Assembly (NCBI RefSeq): GCF_013122565.1
Contig: NZ_CP053258.1
Direction: 5' to 3' (one strand)
DNA length: 64,000 nucleotides
From: Escherichia coli
GTDB taxonomy: Bacteria; Pseudomonadota; Gammaproteobacteria; Enterobacterales; Enterobacteriaceae
The notes below the pieces were generated by a model. It ran no database searches. It saw only the letters and a program-made list of their open reading frames with translations, and was not told the origin of the DNA. Each line of letters begins with the position of its first letter. The stretch's first letter is position 1. Shown here in pieces: positions 2,345 through 11,947 of this stretch. The position numbers were made by a program, and so were the translations under genes.

Positions 2345-4936
2345 ATGCATCAATCTGGTTCTGTTTCTCTTTGTCGTTCCGCAATATCTGTTCTGGTGGC
2401 TACAGCGTTATATTCACCCATAGCATTGGCATCAACAGTTGAGTATGGTGAGACAGTTGATGGTGTTGTCCTGGAAAAAGATATCCAGCTGGTTTATGGG
2501 ACCGCCAATAATACGAAAATCAATCCTGGCGGAGAACAGCATATTAAAGAATTTGGTATAAGTAGTAATACTGAAATTAACGGCGGGTATCAGTACATTG
2601 AAATGAATGGCACCGCAGAATACTCCGTATTAAATGATGGTTATCAAATTGTTCAAATGGGTGGCGCGGCAAACCAGACTACCCTCAATAATGGTGTGCT
2701 ACAGGTTTATGGCGCAGCGAATGATCCCACGATTAAAGGCGGGCGCTTAATCGTTGAAAAAGATGGGATTACCGTCCTTGCCGCTATCGAAAAGGGAGGA
2801 TTACTGGAGGTTAAAGAGGGGGGGTTAGCGATTGCGGTAGATCAGAAAGCCGGCGGTGCTATTAAAACAACCACGCGGGCCATGGAGGTATTCGGAACAA
2901 ACCGTCTCGGTCAGTTCGATATCAAGAATGGTATTGCTAACAATATGCTGTTGGAAAACGGCGGAAGTTTGCGAGTTGAAGAAAATGACTTCGCTTATAA
3001 TACTACTGTAGATAGTGGCGGCTTACTGGAGGTTATGGATGGCGGGACTGCAACTGGCGTTGATAAAAAAGCAGGCGGAAAATTAATTGTCTCAACGAAT
3101 GCGCTGGAAGTGAGTGGTACAAACAGTAAAGGCCAATTTAGTATAAAAGATGGTGTGTCAAAAAATTATGAACTGGACGATGGTTCCGGGCTCATTGTTA
3201 TGGAGGACACGCAGGCCATTGATACTATCCTTGATGAGCATGCCACTATGCAATCGCTGGGAAAGGATACTGGTACGAGAGTGCAGGCAAATGCGGTATA
3301 TGATCTGGGTCGATCAGATCAGAATGGAAGTATCACGTATTCCTCTAAAGCCATCTCTGAAAATATGGTTATCAACAATGGCCGCGCTAATGTCTGGGCA
3401 GGCACAATGGTTAACGTTTCAGTCAGAGGGAATGATGGCATTCTTGAGGTCATGAAGCCGCAAATAAATTATGCACCCGCTATGTTGGTGGGTAGTGTCG
3501 TGGTTTCTGAGGGCGCTTCTTTAAGAACGCATGGTGCCGTGGATACCAGCAAAGCGGATGTTTCGCTCGAAAATAGCTCATGGACCATCATTGCCGATAT
3601 CACTACGACGAACCAAAACACCCGCCTCAATTTAGCCAACCTTGCGATGTCTGGCGCAAATGTGATTATGATGGATGAGCCAGTGACTCGTTCATCTGTG
3701 ACGGCAAGTGCGGAAAATTTCACTACGTTGACCACCAATACCCTGTCGGGAAACGGCAATTTTTATATGCGTACCGATATGGCTAATCATCAGAGCGATC
3801 AGCTCAACGTCACCGGACAGGCAACAGGTGATTTCAAAATATTCGTGACGGACACCGGTGCCAGCCCGGCAGCAGGAGATAGCCTTACACTGGTAACAAC
3901 GGGCGGCGGTGATGCTGCATTTACGTTGGGCAATGCCGGAGGCGTTGTTGATATCGGTACGTATGAATATACCTTGCTGGATAATGGCAATCATAGCTGG
4001 AGTCTGGCAGAGAATCGCGCGCAAATTACCCCTTCAACCACTGATGTGCTAAATATGGCGGCAGCACAACCGCTGGTATTTGATGCAGAACTGGACACCG
4101 TGCGTGAGCGTCTTGGTAGCGTAAAAGGCGTTAGTTACGATACGGCGATGTGGAGTTCGGCAATTAACACCCGCAACAACGTGACCACTGATGCGGGCGC
4201 TGGTTTTGAGCAAACATTGACGGGCCTGACGCTCGGTATCGATAGCCGTTTCTCCCGTGAAGAAAGCAGTACAATTCGCGGCTTGTTCTTTGGTTACTCT
4301 CATTCTGATATTGGTTTTGATCGCGGCGGCAAAGGCAATGTCGATAGCTATACCCTGGGTGCTTATGCCGGTTGGGAGCATCAGAACGGTGCCTATGTTG
4401 ATGGGGTGGTGAAAGTTGACCGTTTTGCCAACACCATCCATGGCAAGATGAGTAATGGGGCAACAGCGTTTGGCGATTACAATAGTAACGGCGCGGGTGC
4501 TCATGTTGAGAGCGGGTTCCGTTGGGTTGACGGATTGTGGAGTGTTAGACCCTATCTGGCCTTTACCGGCTTTACCACAGATGGTCAGGACTACACGTTA
4601 TCAAACGGCATGCGCGCGGACGTGGGAAATACCCGGATATTACGCGCTGAAGCGGGAACGGCGGTAAGCTATCACATGGACCTGCAAAACGGTACGACGC
4701 TGGAACCCTGGCTGAAAGCCGCCGTGCGTCAGGAATACGCCGATTCTAACCAGGTGAAAGTTAATGACGATGGCAAATTTAATAATGATGTGGCTGGAAC
4801 CAGTGGCGTTTATCAGGCTGGGATAAGGTCATCGTTTACCCCGACGTTAAGCGGTCATTTGTCAGTCAGCTATGGCAATGGCGCAGGGGTAGAATCACCG
4901 TGGAATACTCAGGCGGGTGTGGTCTGGTCGTTCTGA
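2345..4936 (+). CDS. yejO: Adhesin-like autotransporter (type Va secretion), apparently intact, 863 aa
   Basis: N-terminal signal peptide, repetitive Gly/Thr/Asn-rich passenger region, C-terminal beta-barrel translocator ending in …AGVVWSF; located next to tRNA-Pro and narP. Confidence 0.8.
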   Translation: MHQSGSVSLCRSAISVLVATALYSPIALASTVEYGETVDGVVLEKDIQLVYGTANNTKINPGGEQHIKEFGISSNTEINGGYQYIEMNGTAEYSVLNDGYQIVQMGGAANQTTLNNGVLQVYGAANDPTIKGGRLIVEKDGITVLAAIEKGGLLEVKEGGLAIAVDQKAGGAIKTTTRAMEVFGTNRLGQFDIKNGIANNMLLENGGSLRVEENDFAYNTTVDSGGLLEVMDGGTATGVDKKAGGKLIVSTNALEVSGTNSKGQFSIKDGVSKNYELDDGSGLIVMEDTQAIDTILDEHATMQSLGKDTGTRVQANAVYDLGRSDQNGSITYSSKAISENMVINNGRANVWAGTMVNVSVRGNDGILEVMKPQINYAPAMLVGSVVVSEGASLRTHGAVDTSKADVSLENSSWTIIADITTTNQNTRLNLANLAMSGANVIMMDEPVTRSSVTASAENFTTLTTNTLSGNGNFYMRTDMANHQSDQLNVTGQATGDFKIFVTDTGASPAAGDSLTLVTTGGGDAAFTLGNAGGVVDIGTYEYTLLDNGNHSWSLAENRAQITPSTTDVLNMAAAQPLVFDAELDTVRERLGSVKGVSYDTAMWSSAINTRNNVTTDAGAGFEQTLTGLTLGIDSRFSREESSTIRGLFFGYSHSDIGFDRGGKGNVDSYTLGAYAGWEHQNGAYVDGVVKVDRFANTIHGKMSNGATAFGDYNSNGAGAHVESGFRWVDGLWSVRPYLAFTGFTTDGQDYTLSNGMRADVGNTRILRAEAGTAVSYHMDLQNGTTLEPWLKAAVRQEYADSNQVKVNDDGKFNNDVAGTSGVYQAGIRSSFTPTLSGHLSVSYGNGAGVESPWNTQAGVVWSF

Positions 4937-5037: not shown

Positions 5038-5114
5038 TGGTCGGCACGAGAGGATTTGAACCTCCGACCCCCGACACCCCATGACGGTGCGCTACCAGGC
5101 TGCGCTACGTGCCG
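5038..5114 (-). tRNA. proL: tRNA-Pro
   Basis: 77-nt sequence on the minus strand reading CGGCACGTAGCGCAGCCTGGTAGCGCACCGTCATGGGGTGTCGGGGGTCGGAGGTTCAAATCCTCTCGTGCCGACCA, with a paired acceptor stem, T-loop GGTTCAAATCC and encoded CCA. Confidence 0.85.
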
Positions 5115-7196: not shown

Positions 7197-7377
7197 AAAT
7201 CGAAATCAGTTAGTTGATGAAAGGGCAACATATTACCGTAGCAACGGTTTTTTTTCTGCTTTTTTATGCGTTAAATCATTCTCGTTACGCTGCCTTCTGT
7301 AAAATGACCGCCATCTTTTATTGCGTCGCTTAACCGGCGGTGGTTGAATACCGCCCGGTCTTAAAGGAGAGTTTATC

Positions 7378-8385
7378 ATGAGTCTGGATATCAACCAGAT
7401 TGCTCTGCACCAGCTTATCAAGCGTGATGAGCAGAACCTTGAGCTGGTGTTGCGCGATTCATTGCTGGAACCGACAGAAACCGTCGTTGAGATGGTGGCA
7501 GAACTGCATCGGGTCTATAGCGCCAAAAATAAAGCTTACGGCTTGTTTAGCGAAGAGAGTGAACTGGCGCAGACGCTGCGCTTACAGCGTCAGGGCGAAG
7601 AGGACTTTCTGGCATTTAGCCGCGCGGCAACCGGTCGCCTGCGTGACGAATTAGCGAAATATCCTTTTGCTGACGGTGGATTCGTGCTGTTTTGCCACTA
7701 CCGTTATCTGGCGGTGGAGTATCTGCTGGTGGCAGTCCTGAGCAACCTGAGCAGTATGCGCGTTAACGAAAATCTCGACATCAACCCAACCCATTATCTT
7801 GATATCAATCATGCGGATATTGTTGCGCGTATCGATTTAACCGAATGGGAAACCAATCCAGAGTCGACCCGCTATCTCACTTTCCTGAAAGGGCGAGTAG
7901 GGCGCAAAGTGGCGGATTTCTTTATGGATTTCCTCGGGGCCAGCGAAGGGTTAAACGCGAAAGCGCAAAACCGTGGGCTGTTGCAAGCGGTTGATGATTT
8001 CACTGCCGAAGCACAACTGGATAAAGCAGAGCGACAGAACGTGCGCCAGCAGGTTTATAGCTACTGTAATGAGCAGCTGCAGGCAGGCGAAGAGATTGAA
8101 CTGGAGTCGCTGTCGAAAGAGCTGGCAGGCGTCAGCGAAGTGAGCTTCACGGAGTTTGCGGCTGAAAAAGGCTACGAACTGGAAGAGAGCTTCCCGGCAG
8201 ACCGTAGCACACTGCGTCAGTTGACGAAGTTTGCCGGTAGCGGCGGTGGCTTGACTATTAACTTTGATGCGATGCTGTTAGGTGAACGCATCTTCTGGGA
8301 TCCGGCGACCGATACCCTGACCATTAAAGGCACGCCGCCGAATTTGCGCGACCAATTGCAGCGCCGGACGTCTGGTGGGAACTAA
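7378..8385 (+). CDS. yejK: Nucleoid-associated protein YejK (NdpA)
   Basis: 335-aa ORF ([19 protein letters not shown]…), conserved gene order. Confidence 0.9.
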
Positions 8386-8765
8386 ATCTCCAACGCGAAT
8401 GTTTCTTTTCGGAGAAACAGTTGCGGGATAATCACAATTCTTGTCAATCAGTTAGTGAGATGACTTGCTGATTGACCTTTCATTCGAAAATGTTTTCTCT
8501 GTTATTATACTTAGTGTTACTGAAAATATTATTCTCTTATCCCCTTTATTCGATAATAAATCGGTCTGGTCACTATTTCCGCCGTTTTTTGTGAGCTGTA
8601 ACACTGGAAAAATCATTCTGTTTAATTATATTGAGTTTACTTGGCGTTATATGTTGTTATTTGCTTTGACTATATAAAATGCAAATGTATTCTTAATGTC
8701 AATATTATTGTCGTTATGTTTGACTCATTATATTAATCGTATGAATAGTTTTAAGGATTCACCGC

Positions 8766-9338
8766 ATGGAGCAAGAAAATCCTGAAGATAGAAAGTGTTG
8801 TCGACCGAAAAAAACGTTCTCTTTAACCAGAAAATTACTGGTATGTTTTATCTTTACCCTCATTGTATTCAGTGGTTGTTTATTTGTCGTTATGAACACG
8901 GTCATTCATAACACCAGCACTGACAGCTTTTGCCTGGGTTGTCATGAAATGAAAGACAACATCCTTACCGAGAGTTTCAAAAAATCCATTCATGGCAGTA
9001 ATCGTACTGGCGTGAAAGTCGCTTGTGCCGATTGCCATATTCCTGATGAATTTGTCCCTAAGATGATCAGAAAAGCCCACGCCGTTAAAGAGGTTTGGGG
9101 GCATATGACAGGCGTAATTGATACGGCCGATAAATTCGATGCACATCGTGGCGAAATGGCAAAAGCGGAATGGGCAAGAATGAAAGCAAACAATTCGCAG
9201 GAATGCAGAGACTGCCACGATATTTCTAAATTACAGAAAAAATTTATGGCGCCGTTCCATGAGGCTTCTCTTAAAGAAGGGAAAACATGCATTGATTGTC
9301 ATGCCGGCATTGCACATAAATTACCAGCAGTTCATTAG
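8766..9338 (+). CDS. NapC/NirT/CymA-family membrane-anchored tetraheme cytochrome c (putative quinol dehydrogenase)
   Basis: 190-aa ORF with an N-terminal transmembrane helix and four CxxCH heme-binding motifs (CLGCH, CADCH, CRDCH, CIDCH); AAGGA Shine-Dalgarno sequence 8 nt upstream; AT-rich codon usage. Confidence 0.85.
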   Translation: MEQENPEDRKCCRPKKTFSLTRKLLVCFIFTLIVFSGCLFVVMNTVIHNTSTDSFCLGCHEMKDNILTESFKKSIHGSNRTGVKVACADCHIPDEFVPKMIRKAHAVKEVWGHMTGVIDTADKFDAHRGEMAKAEWARMKANNSQECRDCHDISKLQKKFMAPFHEASLKEGKTCIDCHAGIAHKLPAVH

Positions 9339-9431
9339 TCATTAATACATGAATGTCATGTCTGTCTGGTTTCAAATAAAAACAAGAAGGGTTTCATGTT
9401 GATTTAAGTTTTTATGTAAAAGGACCATGTT

Positions 9432-11072
9432 ATGAGGAAACTAAAAAGGGGATTCTTATTGGCTGGGGTATTAACGGCACTTTCTCTAAGCGCTTATGCT
9501 GACAGAAATATGAATAAGATCCCGCATATCAATCTGTCGAATCCATCCGTCGAACCAGTTAGTGAGAGAATAATCCAAACAGATATTGTTGTTATTGGCG
9601 GTGGGCTTTCTGGCATGTCCGCAGGGTTGACTGCAGTACAGGGCGGAGCCAAAGTTGTTATTTTTGAAAAACTACCAAGCCTTGGAGGGGCAGGCGTTTA
9701 TCCTGAAGGCAGTTTAGGCATTGGCACCCTTATGCAAAAAAAAGAGGGGAAAGGTGCCACGCTGAATCAAGCCTTTGGTAAGGCGATCGATTTCCATCAC
9801 TGGCGAGCCAATGCTAGTGCATTGCACGCATTAATGAAAAACTCAGGCGAAACCATTGATTGGGTTGCCAGTAATGGCGTTGAGTTTACGACCTTAAAAA
9901 CCACCATTTATCCTCAGTCAGATTCATTATGGACCTGGCATATGTATAAGCATAATGGTGCATCTGTTACTAAAAGCTTTTACAAGAAGATCCTTGATGG
10001 AGGTGGGCAAATCTACACCGAAACTCCTGTTAAGAAGATTCTTCGCGACAAACAAAGCGGTGATGTCGTTGGCGTCGAAGCGGTTAATAGCGTAACAGGG
10101 GAAAAAATCATTGCCTATGGTAAGGGTGTGATTGTGGCGACCGGTGGTTTTGCCAACAACCGTGACATGATTGAAAAATACATCACCGATGTGAATCAGA
10201 AAAACATGGTGCCGGTCAAACTACGTGGCCCCCTGATTGATGGACGCGAAGGCGATGGTATCAAAATGGGGCAAGACATTGGCGCTGATACTGCCGGGAT
10301 GCAAACCATTGCTGGCAATAGCCCATATGTCGATCAAGACCCTCCTATCCGTCAGTTTAATGGCGCGGATTACCAAAAACAGGCCAGAACGTCATTAAGC
10401 CAGCCATTCCTGTGGATTAACCGACAAGGCGAGCGTTTCTTTGATGAGTCACTCGGTTCCAGTTTTACCCTCGTTTATAACGCTATCACCATGAATGGCG
10501 GAGTCATGTATTCTGTCTGGGATGATGCAATGCGCCAGAAGATGGTTAACGAAGGGCCGGTTACACCGTTTAACGCCATCGTGTTGCCTGGGCAGCCGAT
10601 GAAGGCGCTGGATCAGGCGATCGAAATCGGCATGAAAGAAGGGTGGTTATTTAAAGGTGAAACGTTGGACGATCTGGCAAAACAGATCAATGTTCCTGCA
10701 GACAATCTGAAAGCGACGATTGCGAAAGTAAACAAGTATACGGATGAAGGTTTCGATCCTGACTGGGGGCGCAAGAAAGAGCATCTGTTTAAATTTCAGG
10801 ATAAAGGACCGTATTACGCCGTGAAAGGTATTCGGGCTTATTTCCTGACGCTGGGTGGTTTGAAAATGAACAGCGATCTGCAGGTCTACGATACCAATGA
10901 GAAGATTATCCCAGGTCTGTATGTTGTCGGGCAGGATATGGGCGGTCTGTATGACAGCTCCTATGATTTGGTACTTGAAGGATCGGCTTCTGGCTTTGCG
11001 TTGACGTCGGGACGTATGGCAGCGAAACATATTATAAGCACCAGAGTGCAGGCACAGGGAGGAGGCAAATGA
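9432..11072 (+). CDS. Periplasmic FAD-dependent flavoprotein reductase, fumarate-reductase/flavocytochrome-c family (substrate unknown)
   Basis: 546-aa ORF; signal peptide MRKLKRGFLLAGVLTALSLSAYA; dinucleotide-binding fold VVIGGGLSGMSAG; C-terminal FAD-binding motif of the FrdA/SdhA family (…GLYVVGQDMGG…); its stop overlaps the next start (ATGA). Confidence 0.85.
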   Translation: MRKLKRGFLLAGVLTALSLSAYADRNMNKIPHINLSNPSVEPVSERIIQTDIVVIGGGLSGMSAGLTAVQGGAKVVIFEKLPSLGGAGVYPEGSLGIGTLMQKKEGKGATLNQAFGKAIDFHHWRANASALHALMKNSGETIDWVASNGVEFTTLKTTIYPQSDSLWTWHMYKHNGASVTKSFYKKILDGGGQIYTETPVKKILRDKQSGDVVGVEAVNSVTGEKIIAYGKGVIVATGGFANNRDMIEKYITDVNQKNMVPVKLRGPLIDGREGDGIKMGQDIGADTAGMQTIAGNSPYVDQDPPIRQFNGADYQKQARTSLSQPFLWINRQGERFFDESLGSSFTLVYNAITMNGGVMYSVWDDAMRQKMVNEGPVTPFNAIVLPGQPMKALDQAIEIGMKEGWLFKGETLDDLAKQINVPADNLKATIAKVNKYTDEGFDPDWGRKKEHLFKFQDKGPYYAVKGIRAYFLTLGGLKMNSDLQVYDTNEKIIPGLYVVGQDMGGLYDSSYDLVLEGSASGFALTSGRMAAKHIISTRVQAQGGGK

Positions 11073-11479
11073 GTAAGCTATTGAAGAACATTGTCACAAT
11101 CATTCTTGCTGGCGTAATGTGCACCGTTATCGGTATGGTTTCTGCCAGTGCACAAGAGATTGTCGGCATGAAAATGCACAAGACCATTGGTCTGGAATGT
11201 AATAACTGCCATGTTGATGATGTTAAAGCCAACAAGAATATGACGCCAACGTGCGTTAGCTGCCATGCGCCTGGTGAGCGTTATTATCATGGTAAGAAGG
11301 ATTCAGAAGGTAACTCAGTGTTAAAAGAGTATCCGGAGTCGGGTAAAACACGAGTTGCGTCTTTCCATGACTCTCATGGCGGGGAAATTCGCTGTACGGT
11401 ATGCCATACGTCACATGAGAAGGAACCACAGCCACTCTATTGCAACAACTGCCATCAGTTTGATGTGAAGATTAAGTAG
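11069..11479 (+). CDS. Small periplasmic tetraheme cytochrome c
   Basis: 136-aa ORF with N-terminal signal/anchor and four CxxCH motifs (CNNCH, CVSCH, CTVCH, CNNCH); strong GGAGG ribosome-binding site; translationally coupled to the flavoprotein gene. Confidence 0.8.
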   Translation: MSKLLKNIVTIILAGVMCTVIGMVSASAQEIVGMKMHKTIGLECNNCHVDDVKANKNMTPTCVSCHAPGERYYHGKKDSEGNSVLKEYPESGKTRVASFHDSHGGEIRCTVCHTSHEKEPQPLYCNNCHQFDVKIK

Positions 11480-11504
11480 TGAAGGTATTTGTCAGTCGCT
11501 GAAA

Positions 11505-11537
11505 AAGAAAACGGCCCGTAAAGGCCGTTTTCTTTTG
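11505..11537. terminator. Bidirectional intrinsic terminator between the cytochrome gene (+) and rplY (-)
   Basis: Hairpin aaacggcc-cgtaaa-ggccgttt flanked by an A-rich stretch upstream and a T-rich stretch downstream. Confidence 0.65.
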
Positions 11538-11554
11538 TTCAACTTATTCAGCAA

Positions 11555-11947
<393 letters not shown>

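Follow-up and report, generated by a model that had tools for sequence, protein, structure and literature searches.

A NapC/NirT-family tetrahaem cytochrome heads a conserved three-gene operon, a putative quinol-driven periplasmic reductase, in a rare Escherichia coli island

Textbook accounts of anaerobic respiration use enterobacteria as models, and the question raised by the present locus is whether a NapC-like gene in a 64,000-nt stretch of Escherichia coli DNA (contig NZ_CP053258.1; hereafter the window) provides a separate route from quinol to the periplasm, dedicated to the flavoprotein encoded beside it, as had been inferred in an original prediction. Such a module would bring the number of NapC/NirT-type exits for electrons from the Escherichia quinone pool to four. 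Many dietary and host metabolites are respired by gut bacteria via flavin reductases (10.1101/2022.12.26.521950). The NapC-like gene lies in an accessory island with three genes in the same orientation.

8386..11554, + strand: whole accessory island, delimited by junction alignment against empty-site E. coli.
8766..9338, + strand: NapC/NirT-family tetrahaem cytochrome c, putative quinol dehydrogenase, 190 aa (Pfam PF03264).
9432..11072, + strand: periplasmic FAD-dependent oxidoreductase, 546 aa, with the Sec-type signal peptide MRKLKRGFLLAGVLTALSLSAYA (NCBIfam and solved-structure matches).
11069..11479, + strand: small periplasmic tetrahaem cytochrome c, 136 aa (motif scan and solved-structure match).

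Ordinary E. coli has a 139-bp intergenic region between yejK and rplY, and the island sits in its place. When the junctions were aligned with empty-site E. coli, similarity stopped directly after the yejK stop codon and restarted at the end of rplY. The GC content of the island is 31-48%, against ~52% in the flanks, and at its ends we found neither direct or inverted repeats nor an IS element or integrase. The identical yejK-rplY site is occupied in E. albertii (the type strain and many further records), in cryptic Escherichia clades and in some Citrobacter. The island was present in none of 5,426 complete E. coli genomes in RefSeq and on none of 72,556 plasmids, where the only matches were NapC paralogues of at most 50% identity. 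The three-gene island is thus rare in E. coli and not a general feature of the species, and the idea that E. coli at large carries this gene as a further copy does not hold, since no complete RefSeq E. coli genome has the island. It could instead mark a lineage, with E. albertii and the cryptic clades on one side and E. coli on the other. An NrfH-like protein had also been listed among the electron-entry modules of E. coli; we know of none in this organism, the Nrf system of which runs on NrfBCD. An Rfam scan gave only sub-threshold chance matches, with no known riboswitch or sRNA, and there was no match to PADLOC defence models. The operon is already annotated generically by NCBI, yet is uncharacterised.

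The ORF of the NapC-like protein starts with ATG, 8 nt downstream of an AAGGA ribosome-binding site, and an identical protein sequence is held by NCBI as WP_171460607.1, named 'NapC/NirT family cytochrome c'. The protein belongs to the NapC/NirT family, as had been predicted: residues 24-188 match Pfam Cytochrom_NNT (PF03264) at model positions 7-173 of 174 (E 5.5e-57), in effect over its full length. Within the family, scores fell below the cut-off for the NCBIfam NapC equivalog NF007906 (199.4 bits, cut-off 349), the napC_nirT subfamily TIGR02161 (206.7 bits, cut-off 310.6), the NrfH model TIGR03153 (53.9 bits, cut-off 134.2; no nrfA is nearby) and the TorC model (173.1 bits, cut-off 478.2), and the protein, with 190 aa and four motifs, has no C-terminal fifth-haem domain as in TorC. 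Identity was 47.8% to E. coli NapC, 38% to TorC/TorY and 31.4% to the verified CymA of Shewanella oneidensis, so that of the earlier label NapC/CymA-like the first half fits better than the second. In a neighbour-joining tree of 47 sequences with bootstrap, the island proteins formed a clade of their own with 100% support and a long stem, beside and outside the sampled NapC-type group, the monophyly of which had 72% support; CymA fell outside the NapC and island groups together, a split with 95.5% support. Since both NapC-type NCBIfam scores are below cut-off and the island proteins form a separate clade at 100% bootstrap, the protein is not a NapC orthologue. A PDB search with the single NapC-like sequence returned nothing, and a search with a family profile identified NrfH (2J7A/2VR0) as the only solved relative (E 9e-10). 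NrfH was also the only structural match found by Foldseek for the AlphaFold2 model, a match weak enough (TM 0.41-0.51; 18-22% identity) to count against the preferred reading given below.

Sequence features of the NapC-like protein were mapped as follows.

8835..8891, + strand: codons of the transmembrane anchor, residues 24-42 (hydropathy; AlphaFold2 helix).
8931..8951, + strand: haem 1 motif CLGCHEM (CXXCHXM, residues 56-62), which aligns with FCTSCHIM of NrfH in a profile alignment to 2J7A.
9024..9038, + strand: haem 2 motif CADCH (residues 87-91), with C87, C90 and H91 in invariant columns (41 sequences).
9072..9092, + strand: predicted quinol-site residues Lys103 to Glu109 (alignment with CymA and NrfH).
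9204..9218, + strand: haem 3 motif CRDCH (residues 147-151), invariant columns (41 sequences).
9288..9302, + strand: haem 4 motif CIDCH (residues 175-179), invariant columns (41 sequences).

The segment LLVCFIFTLIVFSGCLFVV (residues 24-42) is the sole hydrophobic stretch of the protein, with a Kyte-Doolittle mean of 2.91 over 19 residues, and the AlphaFold2 model places one long helix at residues 20-49 (pLDDT 87-93). Seven Lys/Arg residues in the N-terminal tail favour an N-in, C-out topology. These features, from sequence and model, confirm the single N-terminal anchor originally described and suggest a periplasmic haem domain; the model as a whole is of moderate quality (pLDDT 74.8) and was built without haems, which counts against the preferred reading. 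All four haem motifs are intact in the window protein and present in 13 of 13 members of the clade, and the 12 haem Cys/His columns are invariant in an alignment of 41 sequences. Beyond these four, no CXXCH, CX3-4CH or CXXCK motif was found in the ORF. Four or more CXXCH motifs arose in 0 of 200,000 shuffles of the protein's own residues, which together with the full-length Pfam match argues that the motifs are not due to chance, and all four sites are expected to carry haem. Distances between successive motifs are 31/60/28, compared with 30/60/32 in E. coli NapC, 29/61/32 in TorC and TorY and 29/61/37 in CymA; the spacing thus resembles that of NapC/NirT/TorC overall, as had been noted, apart from a haem 3-4 loop that is four residues shorter. 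A loss of the distal His ligand at the 'VPH' position after haem 2 was considered and dropped, since NapC-type proteins do not conserve that His either.

Residues expected at a quinol site are likewise retained. Met62, kept in 13 of 13 clade members, aligns with NrfH Met49; Lys103 is invariant and aligns with both CymA Lys91 and NrfH Lys82; and Glu109, nearly invariant, aligns with NrfH Asp89. CymA Lys91 is required for quinol binding and respiration (PMC2762525). On the basis of these alignments, Met62, Lys103 and Glu109 near haem 1 are predicted to form the quinol site.

In 13 of 13 relatives the NapC-like gene heads the same operon, followed in the same order by the flavoprotein and the small tetrahaem cytochrome. 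The linkage holds at 64-98% identity across Escherichia, Citrobacter and metagenomic contigs, and never involves nap genes. Estimates of dN/dS were 0.05-0.14 for the NapC-like gene, 0.011-0.018 for the flavoprotein gene and 0.016-0.10 for the small cytochrome gene, so all three are under strong purifying selection. Flavoprotein/cytochrome pairs of 59-70% identity in other phyla have no NapC-like neighbour, and the quinol module therefore looks like an addition peculiar to the enterobacterial form. Pairs related to those of the island also occur in Geobacterales and Deferribacterales. This comparative evidence, strict linkage together with purifying selection, supports the inference of a dedicated quinol route. 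Naming the flavoprotein as its only partner was right in that the same flavoprotein accompanies the gene in all relatives, and incomplete in that the third gene at 11069-11479 had been missed.

The start codon of that third gene overlaps the stop codon of the flavoprotein gene (ATGA). Its product has four CXXCH motifs, five additional His and a signal-like N-terminus. Among solved structures, it is matched best by the haem domain at the N-terminus of flavocytochrome c3 (1QO8, residues 14-88, E 1.1e-6), and a weak match to CctA was found in NCBIfam. It is likely to be an intermediate carrier between the NapC-like protein and the flavoprotein.

For the flavoprotein, the best NCBIfam family was the vinylphenol reductase VprA (equivalog NF053717), at 311.7 bits against a cut-off of 600 and over model positions 7-479 of 481; the flavocytochrome c subfamily ranked next with 172.8 bits, and weaker matches include dehydrogenases, namely 3-ketosteroid dehydrogenases, TcuA and 4-oxocyclohexanecarboxylate dehydrogenases. 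The best matches to solved structures were the urocanate reductase UrdA (6T85, E 8e-36) and Fcc3 (E 1e-22 to 1e-26). The positions of Fcc3 R402, H504 and R544 are taken by Ser343, Phe471 and Tyr511 in the window flavoprotein, and across its family by Ser in 117, Phe in 118 and Tyr in all of 119 sequences. Fumarate, urocanate and acrylate reductases have a catalytic Arg as well as a His and an Arg that bind the carboxylate; by alignment, none of these three residues is kept in the flavoprotein, so its chemistry could be oxidative, a point against the preferred reading. An invariant Tyr and a Glu/Asp are found where the reductases have the proton-donating Arg. A twin-arginine reading of the signal peptide (KR in MRKLKRGF) was rejected because relatives have ordinary Sec-type signals without RR or KR; no member of the flavoprotein family has a twin-arginine motif.

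Signals that may govern transcription of the operon were sought on both sides of the genes.

8590..8605, + strand: candidate CRP-type operator, TGTGAGCTGTAACACT, the longest invariant block in the upstream alignment; putative role.
8627..8632, + strand: -10-like hexamer TATATT (consensus scan; aligned regions keep TTATA(T/C)T).
11503..11536, no strand assigned: perfect 14-bp inverted repeat (100% complementary) with A/T runs on either side.

The block TTTGTGA..CAC..GAA is the longest to be invariant across eight upstream regions that are otherwise ~51% alike. It has two mismatches to the CRP consensus, which taken alone is at chance level within the window, and its conservation suggests that it may function as a CRP site. 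From the position of the -10-like hexamer, a putative promoter element, the centre of the CRP-like site would lie ~41.5 bp upstream of the putative transcription start, consistent with class II geometry. No FNR box (TTGAT-N4-ATCAA, at most two mismatches) was found in the 380-bp upstream region, which counts against the preferred reading. The downstream repeat is likely to be a bidirectional terminator common to the island operon and the convergent rplY gene.

Taken together, these data suggest that the three genes probably encode a self-contained, quinol-driven periplasmic reductase, in which electrons would pass from quinol to the NapC-like protein, then to the small cytochrome and finally to the flavoprotein. 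The NapC-like protein would be a monotopic protein of the inner membrane, anchored by its one N-terminal helix with the haem domain toward the periplasm. Quinol, probably menaquinol, would be oxidised near haem 1 at Met62/Lys103/Glu109, and the four haems would hand the electrons on to the 136-aa tetrahaem cytochrome from the same operon, which would in turn reduce the FAD of the co-encoded, Sec-exported flavoprotein. The unit would in effect be a flavocytochrome c3 whose haem and flavin parts are separate subunits and which has its own quinol dehydrogenase. This chain is supported by the resemblance of the small cytochrome to the haem domain of Fcc3 and of the flavoprotein to the flavin domains of UrdA and Fcc3. 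Two-subunit flavocytochromes c with such a division of labour have been established experimentally in ArdAB (10.1101/2024.02.11.579808) and Mrd/Mcc (PMC4427408). The class of acceptor can be suggested only speculatively. Replacement of the Arg/His/Arg site by Ser/Phe/Tyr, together with VprA as the nearest curated relative, hints at a vinylphenol-type acceptor; that the operon represents a new quinol-driven anaerobic respiration of a non-carboxylate conjugated C=C acceptor, for example vinylphenols, in Escherichia and Citrobacter is a long shot, which if true would yield gut-relevant ethylphenols.

The same components could be run in reverse, with the flavoprotein acting as a periplasmic dehydrogenase or desaturase whose electrons travel via the small cytochrome and the NapC-like protein to quinone, and a quinone-reducing role has been proposed for one NapC/NirT-family member, cytochrome cM552 of Nitrosomonas. 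The invariant Tyr and Glu/Asp in place of the proton-donating Arg would suit an oxidative enzyme, as would the dehydrogenases among the weaker NCBIfam matches. All of the strongest flavoprotein matches, however, are to reductases, with VprA (311.7 bits) ahead of flavocytochrome c and UrdA, and the small cytochrome is similar to a reductase haem domain. To our knowledge, quinol oxidation is the role of all enterobacterial NapC/TorC homologues characterised so far. In favour of reverse flow, the direction has been questioned for the NapC/NirT protein ImoA, but that protein, which was tested by complementing a cymA deletion, behaved as a quinol oxidase in vivo (PMC9600427). We regard electron flow in this reverse direction as unlikely. 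Another reading makes the protein a general-purpose hub like CymA, or a spare NapC for Nap, Nrf and Tor, next to the flavoprotein by accident. NapC/NirT proteins can serve several partners (PMC9600427), the IHNTSTD segment preceding haem 1 resembles CymA, and ccm and narP are located 6-7 kb away. Those surroundings, however, are the ordinary E. coli chromosome at the insertion site, the linkage to flavoprotein and cytochrome is strict at all loci and never includes nap genes, and nearly all E. coli respire nitrate and TMAO normally without the island, which makes incidental adjacency very unlikely.

There are also signs of decay, which raise the question of whether the operon is a remnant with no current function in the window strain. 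A 12-nt in-frame deletion at the C-terminus gives the window allele 190 rather than 194 aa, truncated NapC-like copies occur in some E. albertii and Escherichia sp. strains, which counts against the preferred reading, fragments of the flavoprotein gene are also present in some strains, and the ABC exporter gene of Citrobacter-type loci is missing from the window island. Against this, the ORFs of all three genes are intact and come with ribosome-binding sites and translational coupling, and their dN/dS values are far below 1. The deletion falls beyond His184, the last conserved His, and the same 190-aa allele is found on at least five contigs. It would be surprising in the extreme if the operon were dead in this strain, and the quinol-driven reductase remains the reading that we prefer.

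Comparison with known systems places the operon among several partial counterparts. VprA of Lactiplantibacillus plantarum represents the best-scoring curated family for the flavoprotein, and its substrates without a carboxylate (PMC10295242) fit the missing carboxylate-binding triad; it comes from a Gram-positive source, and neither a cytochrome partner nor a quinol dehydrogenase is mentioned for it in that review (PMC10295242). Desulfovibrio vulgaris NrfH (2J7A/2VR0), the only solved structure of the NapC/NirT family, has a CXXCHXM motif, Lys82 and Asp89 with aligned equivalents in the island protein, whereas the NrfA partner is missing at the island. NapC (E. coli b2202 and its orthologues) is the nearest named relative, alike in Pfam family, length, single anchor and four aligned CXXCH motifs, with CXXCHXM, Lys103, Glu109 and His76/165/184 common to both. 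It differs in the absence of nap genes beside the island gene, in the haem 3-4 loop, four residues shorter in the island protein, and at His48 and His113, which are specific to the island clade where NapC-type proteins have Glu and Lys.

In architecture, the operon matches FccABC of Wolinella succinogenes, which likewise combines a NapC/NirT-type cytochrome, a small tetrahaem cytochrome and a haem-free periplasmic flavoprotein; FccC was reportedly identified as a NapC/NirT-type protein by Simon et al. in 1998. FccA has 515 aa and FccB 146 aa with four haems, and FccA carries a Tat signal, RRDLIK (PMC4427408), in contrast to the Sec-type signal of the island flavoprotein. Mrd/Mcc of Geobacter sulfurreducens AM-1 similarly pairs a periplasmic FAD reductase with a multihaem cytochrome, the two being co-transferred; Mrd differs in being Tat-exported and in keeping the catalytic His and Arg, Mcc has 231 aa, and a NapC-type gene is not reported for that operon (PMC4427408). 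In Shewanella, CymA feeds FccA and two-subunit flavocytochromes c (ArdAB; SO_3056-3058; SO_3299-3301) in the order suggested here, from a NapC/NirT quinol dehydrogenase through a tetrahaem domain or subunit to an FAD reductase (10.1101/2024.02.11.579808; 10.64898/2026.04.22.720169), and the quinol-site Lys of CymA is conserved in the island protein (PMC2762525). The Arg/Arg/His carboxylate site is retained in the flavin subunits of Shewanella and absent from the island flavoprotein, and CymA is a shared hub encoded apart from its partners, whereas the quinol module of the island is encoded inside the operon. The island would thus offer a compact, self-contained wire from quinol to the periplasm, native to an E. 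coli background and a possible alternative in engineering to imported CymA.

The first gene of the three-gene island inserted between yejK and rplY encodes a protein that shows all the testable hallmarks of the NapC/NirT family. The three genes and the region ahead of them contain the following features.

8443-8476: 14-nt inverted repeat (GTCAATCAGTTAGT / ACTTGCTGATTGAC), directly downstream of yejK and conserved in the Escherichia versions
8590-8605: candidate CRP-type site (TGTGAGCTGTAACACT), 2 mismatches, within a block invariant in eight loci
8627-8632: conserved -10-like TATATT
8766-9338, + strand: NapC-like gene, ATG start with AAGGA ahead, 190 aa
9432-11072: FAD flavoprotein gene, 546 aa, downstream of the NapC-like gene
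11069-11479: small tetrahaem cytochrome gene, 136 aa, four CXXCH motifs, five extra His, signal-like N-terminus

CXXCH occurs four times in the NapC-like protein, at residues 56, 87, 147 and 175, and a scan of all 190 aa showed no variant of the haem motif; none of 200,000 shuffles of its own residues yielded four motifs. The motif spacing (31/60/28) is close to that of NapC (30/60/32), TorC/TorY (29/61/32) and CymA (29/61/37). Residues 24-42, the helix quoted in the original prediction, are the sole hydrophobic segment, and an AlphaFold2 model built from a 41-sequence alignment (mean pLDDT 74.8) places a single long, confidently predicted helix at residues 20-49 ahead of a helical haem domain. 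Seven Lys/Arg in the tail ahead of this helix favor an N-in, C-out topology. A Pfam Cytochrom_NNT match spans the protein end to end (E 5.5e-57) and all twelve motif Cys/His are invariant in the alignment, bearing out the proposal of a NapC/CymA-like tetrahaem protein with its own membrane anchor. The window allele carries a 12-nt in-frame deletion at its C-terminus (9321-9338; PAVH vs PAVATAAH, 190 aa vs 194 aa in relatives), which falls beyond His184, the last conserved His.

Placement within the family was examined by alignment with NapC, CymA and TorC and by a distance-based neighbour-joining tree (47 sequences, 199 columns, 200 bootstraps) that sampled NapC-type proteins, TorC, TorY and CymA alongside the clade. 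The window protein and 12 close relatives form one clade with a long stem (100% bootstrap), lying beside, not within, the sampled NapC-type sequences, whose monophyly is supported at 72%; the two groups together split from TorC, TorY and CymA at 95.5%. A database search returned ten 90%-identity clusters at 65-98% identity, followed by a gap down to NapC-type proteins at ~50%. E. coli NapC is 47.8% identical to the window protein, the N-terminal halves of TorC and TorY are 38.5% identical, and S. oneidensis CymA (query sequence confirmed by exact database look-up) is 31.4% identical. Identification as NapC, CymA, NrfH or TorC was rejected, as the protein fails the defining tests of all four; it scores below the cut-offs of the napC_nirT subfamily (206.7 vs 310.6 bits), NapC equivalog (199.4 vs 349), TorC (173.1 vs 478.2) and NrfH (53.9 vs 134.2) models. 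NrfH is the only solved relative (family profile search, E 9e-10; sole Foldseek match to the model, TM 0.41-0.51). The original prediction also credited E. coli with an NrfH-like protein, which established knowledge contradicts: its NapC/NirT members are NapC, TorC and TorY, and we know of no NrfH-type protein in this species. The NapC-type group is itself mixed, and the relatives nearest to the clade do not all belong to Nap systems. A Comamonadaceae homologue (48%; locus L018, 4531-8172) lies between ccmA and an MtrB/PioB porin gene, and one from Ferrimonas (44%; locus L022, 4069-7489) adjoins an OmcA/MtrC decahaem gene; both also score below cut-off. The window protein is best described as representing a new and so far uncharacterised clade; its family and the architecture in which it is used are known.

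Beyond the haem motifs, His76, His165, His184 and Lys103 are invariant, and Glu109, Arg102 and Arg128 vary little or not at all. The haem 1 motif has the form CXXCHXM, with Met62 present in 13/13 clade members. A profile alignment pairs Met62, Lys103 and Glu109 with NrfH Met49, Lys82 and Asp89, residues that Rodrigues et al. reportedly found in 2006 to surround the quinol site at haem 1. Lys103 also aligns with CymA Lys91, and the K91Q substitution in CymA abolished HOQNO binding and arsenate respiration (PMC2762525). Two further positions are invariant in the island clade: His48 (8907-8909), which is Glu in 105/111 NapC-type relatives and His in CymA and TorY, and His113 (9102-9104), which is Lys in 104/111 relatives. 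The stretch ahead of haem 1, IHNTSTD, is closer to LHATSTD of CymA than to NapC.

The start of the small cytochrome gene overlaps the flavoprotein stop. Among solved structures, the cytochrome best matches the tetrahaem domain at the N-terminus of Shewanella flavocytochrome c3 (1QO8, E 1.1e-6), and the flavoprotein best matches urocanate reductase (6T85, E 8e-36) together with the flavin domain of Fcc3, so the pair resembles a flavocytochrome c3 split into two genes. The Sec-type signal peptide found across the whole flavoprotein family (9432-9500 in the window) implies that FAD would be inserted in the periplasm. Shewanella FccA likewise acquires its FAD there. Unlike the island flavoprotein, Mrd, W. 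succinogenes FccA and ArdA carry Tat signals (PMC4427408; 10.1101/2024.02.11.579808). A mature N-terminal stretch, DRNMNxxPxIN..., is conserved among closer flavoprotein relatives and precedes the Rossmann fold.

The altered active site of this flavoprotein is the more unusual element of the island. In an alignment of 119 family members with UrdA and Fcc3, whose sequences were taken from PDB alignments, Ser replaces the proton-donating Arg (Fcc3 R402) in 117/119, Phe replaces His504 in 118/119 and Tyr replaces the second carboxylate-binding Arg (R544, counted along the chain) in 119/119. His365 is Glu or Asp, leaving Arg381 as the only one of these site residues retained. The Ser, Phe and Tyr substitutions rule out a fumarate-type reductase. 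Of the curated families, vinyl phenol reductase VprA scores highest, though below cut-off (311.7 bits over nearly the whole model, cut-off 600); its substrates lack a carboxylate (PMC10295242). A conjugated alkene without a carboxylate would be a candidate substrate, offered as a lead only.

The island (3.17 kb, GC 31-48%, flanks ~52%) stands in place of the 139-bp yejK-rplY spacer, and neither repeats nor mobility genes were found at it. Megablast and blastn found it in 0/5,426 complete RefSeq E. coli genomes, 5,425 of which have the flanks, and it was not found on the plasmids searched. A search of 100,044 species-representative genomes recovered the clade from Escherichia sp. MOD1-EC7003 (94%), E. 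albertii (86%) and Citrobacter sp. Cu233 (66%) and from no others; in each case it occupies this same place on the chromosome. The host itself is E. coli proper: the identity of its flanks to E. coli genomes reaches 98.8-99.1%. Compared with the cryptic-clade Escherichia locus L033, the island genes (window 8766-11839) are 97.0-98.8% identical in DNA, whereas flanking yejK, radD, rsuA and bcr reach only 91.6-94.0%, which suggests entry into this lineage by homologous recombination. NCBI already lists identical entries for the three proteins, named 'NapC/NirT family cytochrome c', 'FAD-dependent oxidoreductase' and 'cytochrome c3 family protein', and the exact NapC-like allele is on at least 5 contigs. 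Cytochrome c maturation genes, needed by the island, lie ~7 kb away in ordinary E. coli gene order, near the start of the window.

291-1343: CcmH-like gene
1378-2055, - strand: narP
2345-4936: autotransporter gene
5038-5114, - strand: tRNA-Pro(GGG)

Upstream regions of eight loci are ~51% alike save one invariant block, TTTGTGA-N7-CAC-N2-GAA, which contains the candidate CRP-type site. Taken alone, a match like this is no more frequent in the window than chance predicts; the TATATT at 8627-8632 would place the site centre ~41.5 bp from the putative start, a class II geometry. CRP-type regulation of the operon is a lead only. No FNR box was found in the island upstream region, and the inverted repeat could be a yejK terminator or an operator.

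In the best-supported scheme, which we consider likely, quinol (probably menaquinol) would reduce the NapC-like protein, which would pass electrons to the 136-aa cytochrome and on through the flavoprotein FAD to a periplasmic acceptor. The same components could run in reverse, from a periplasmic dehydrogenase to quinone, although we regard this as rather unlikely. The original prediction of a quinol route dedicated to the adjacent flavoprotein draws its main support from strict operon linkage and from more remote pairs of flavoprotein and cytochrome genes (70% in a MAG, 59% in Oryzomonas) that occur with a Crp/Fnr-family regulator gene and without a NapC-like gene. The order NapC-like, flavoprotein, cytochrome is kept in all relatives examined: Escherichia sp. 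(L003-L006, L033-L037), the E. albertii type strain (L014), Citrobacter sp. Cu233 (L015), L002 and metagenomic contigs (L007-L012). In L002 the small cytochrome gene (7272-7682) is intact, though missing from public gene calls. A Brenneria homologue (53%) stands alone. These data support the view that the enterobacterial pair, in hosts where we know of no CymA-like hub, is supplied with a putative quinol dehydrogenase of its own, and a role as a general hub or spare NapC appears improbable.

That the island is a decaying remnant is more improbable still. Low dN/dS values (NapC-like 0.05-0.14, flavoprotein 0.011-0.018, cytochrome 0.016-0.10) place all three genes under purifying selection. Shortened copies occur in some E. 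albertii and Escherichia sp. records (P0138, P0142, P0154-P0156; NapC-like 123-152 aa, flavoprotein 79-312 aa), so in part of the strains the operon may be undergoing decay. In Citrobacter-type loci there is a further, fourth gene, at 9867-11606 in L015, 3472-5205 in L007, 4350-6131 in L010 and 7803-9542 in L002. It encodes an ABC exporter of the SmdA/MdlA family that passes the NCBIfam cut-off for SmdA (904 vs 845 bits), and it is absent from the window and the Escherichia versions.

The proposed quinol-to-flavoprotein chain has counterparts among known systems. The split build of the island pair is that of ArdAB of S. woodyi (10.1101/2024.02.11.579808), S. oneidensis SO_3056-3058 and SO_3299-3301 (10.64898/2026.04.22.720169) and Mrd/Mcc (PMC4427408). 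NapC is the nearest named protein by sequence; functionally, the nearest system is W. succinogenes FccABC, with Shewanella CymA and its split flavocytochromes likewise near.
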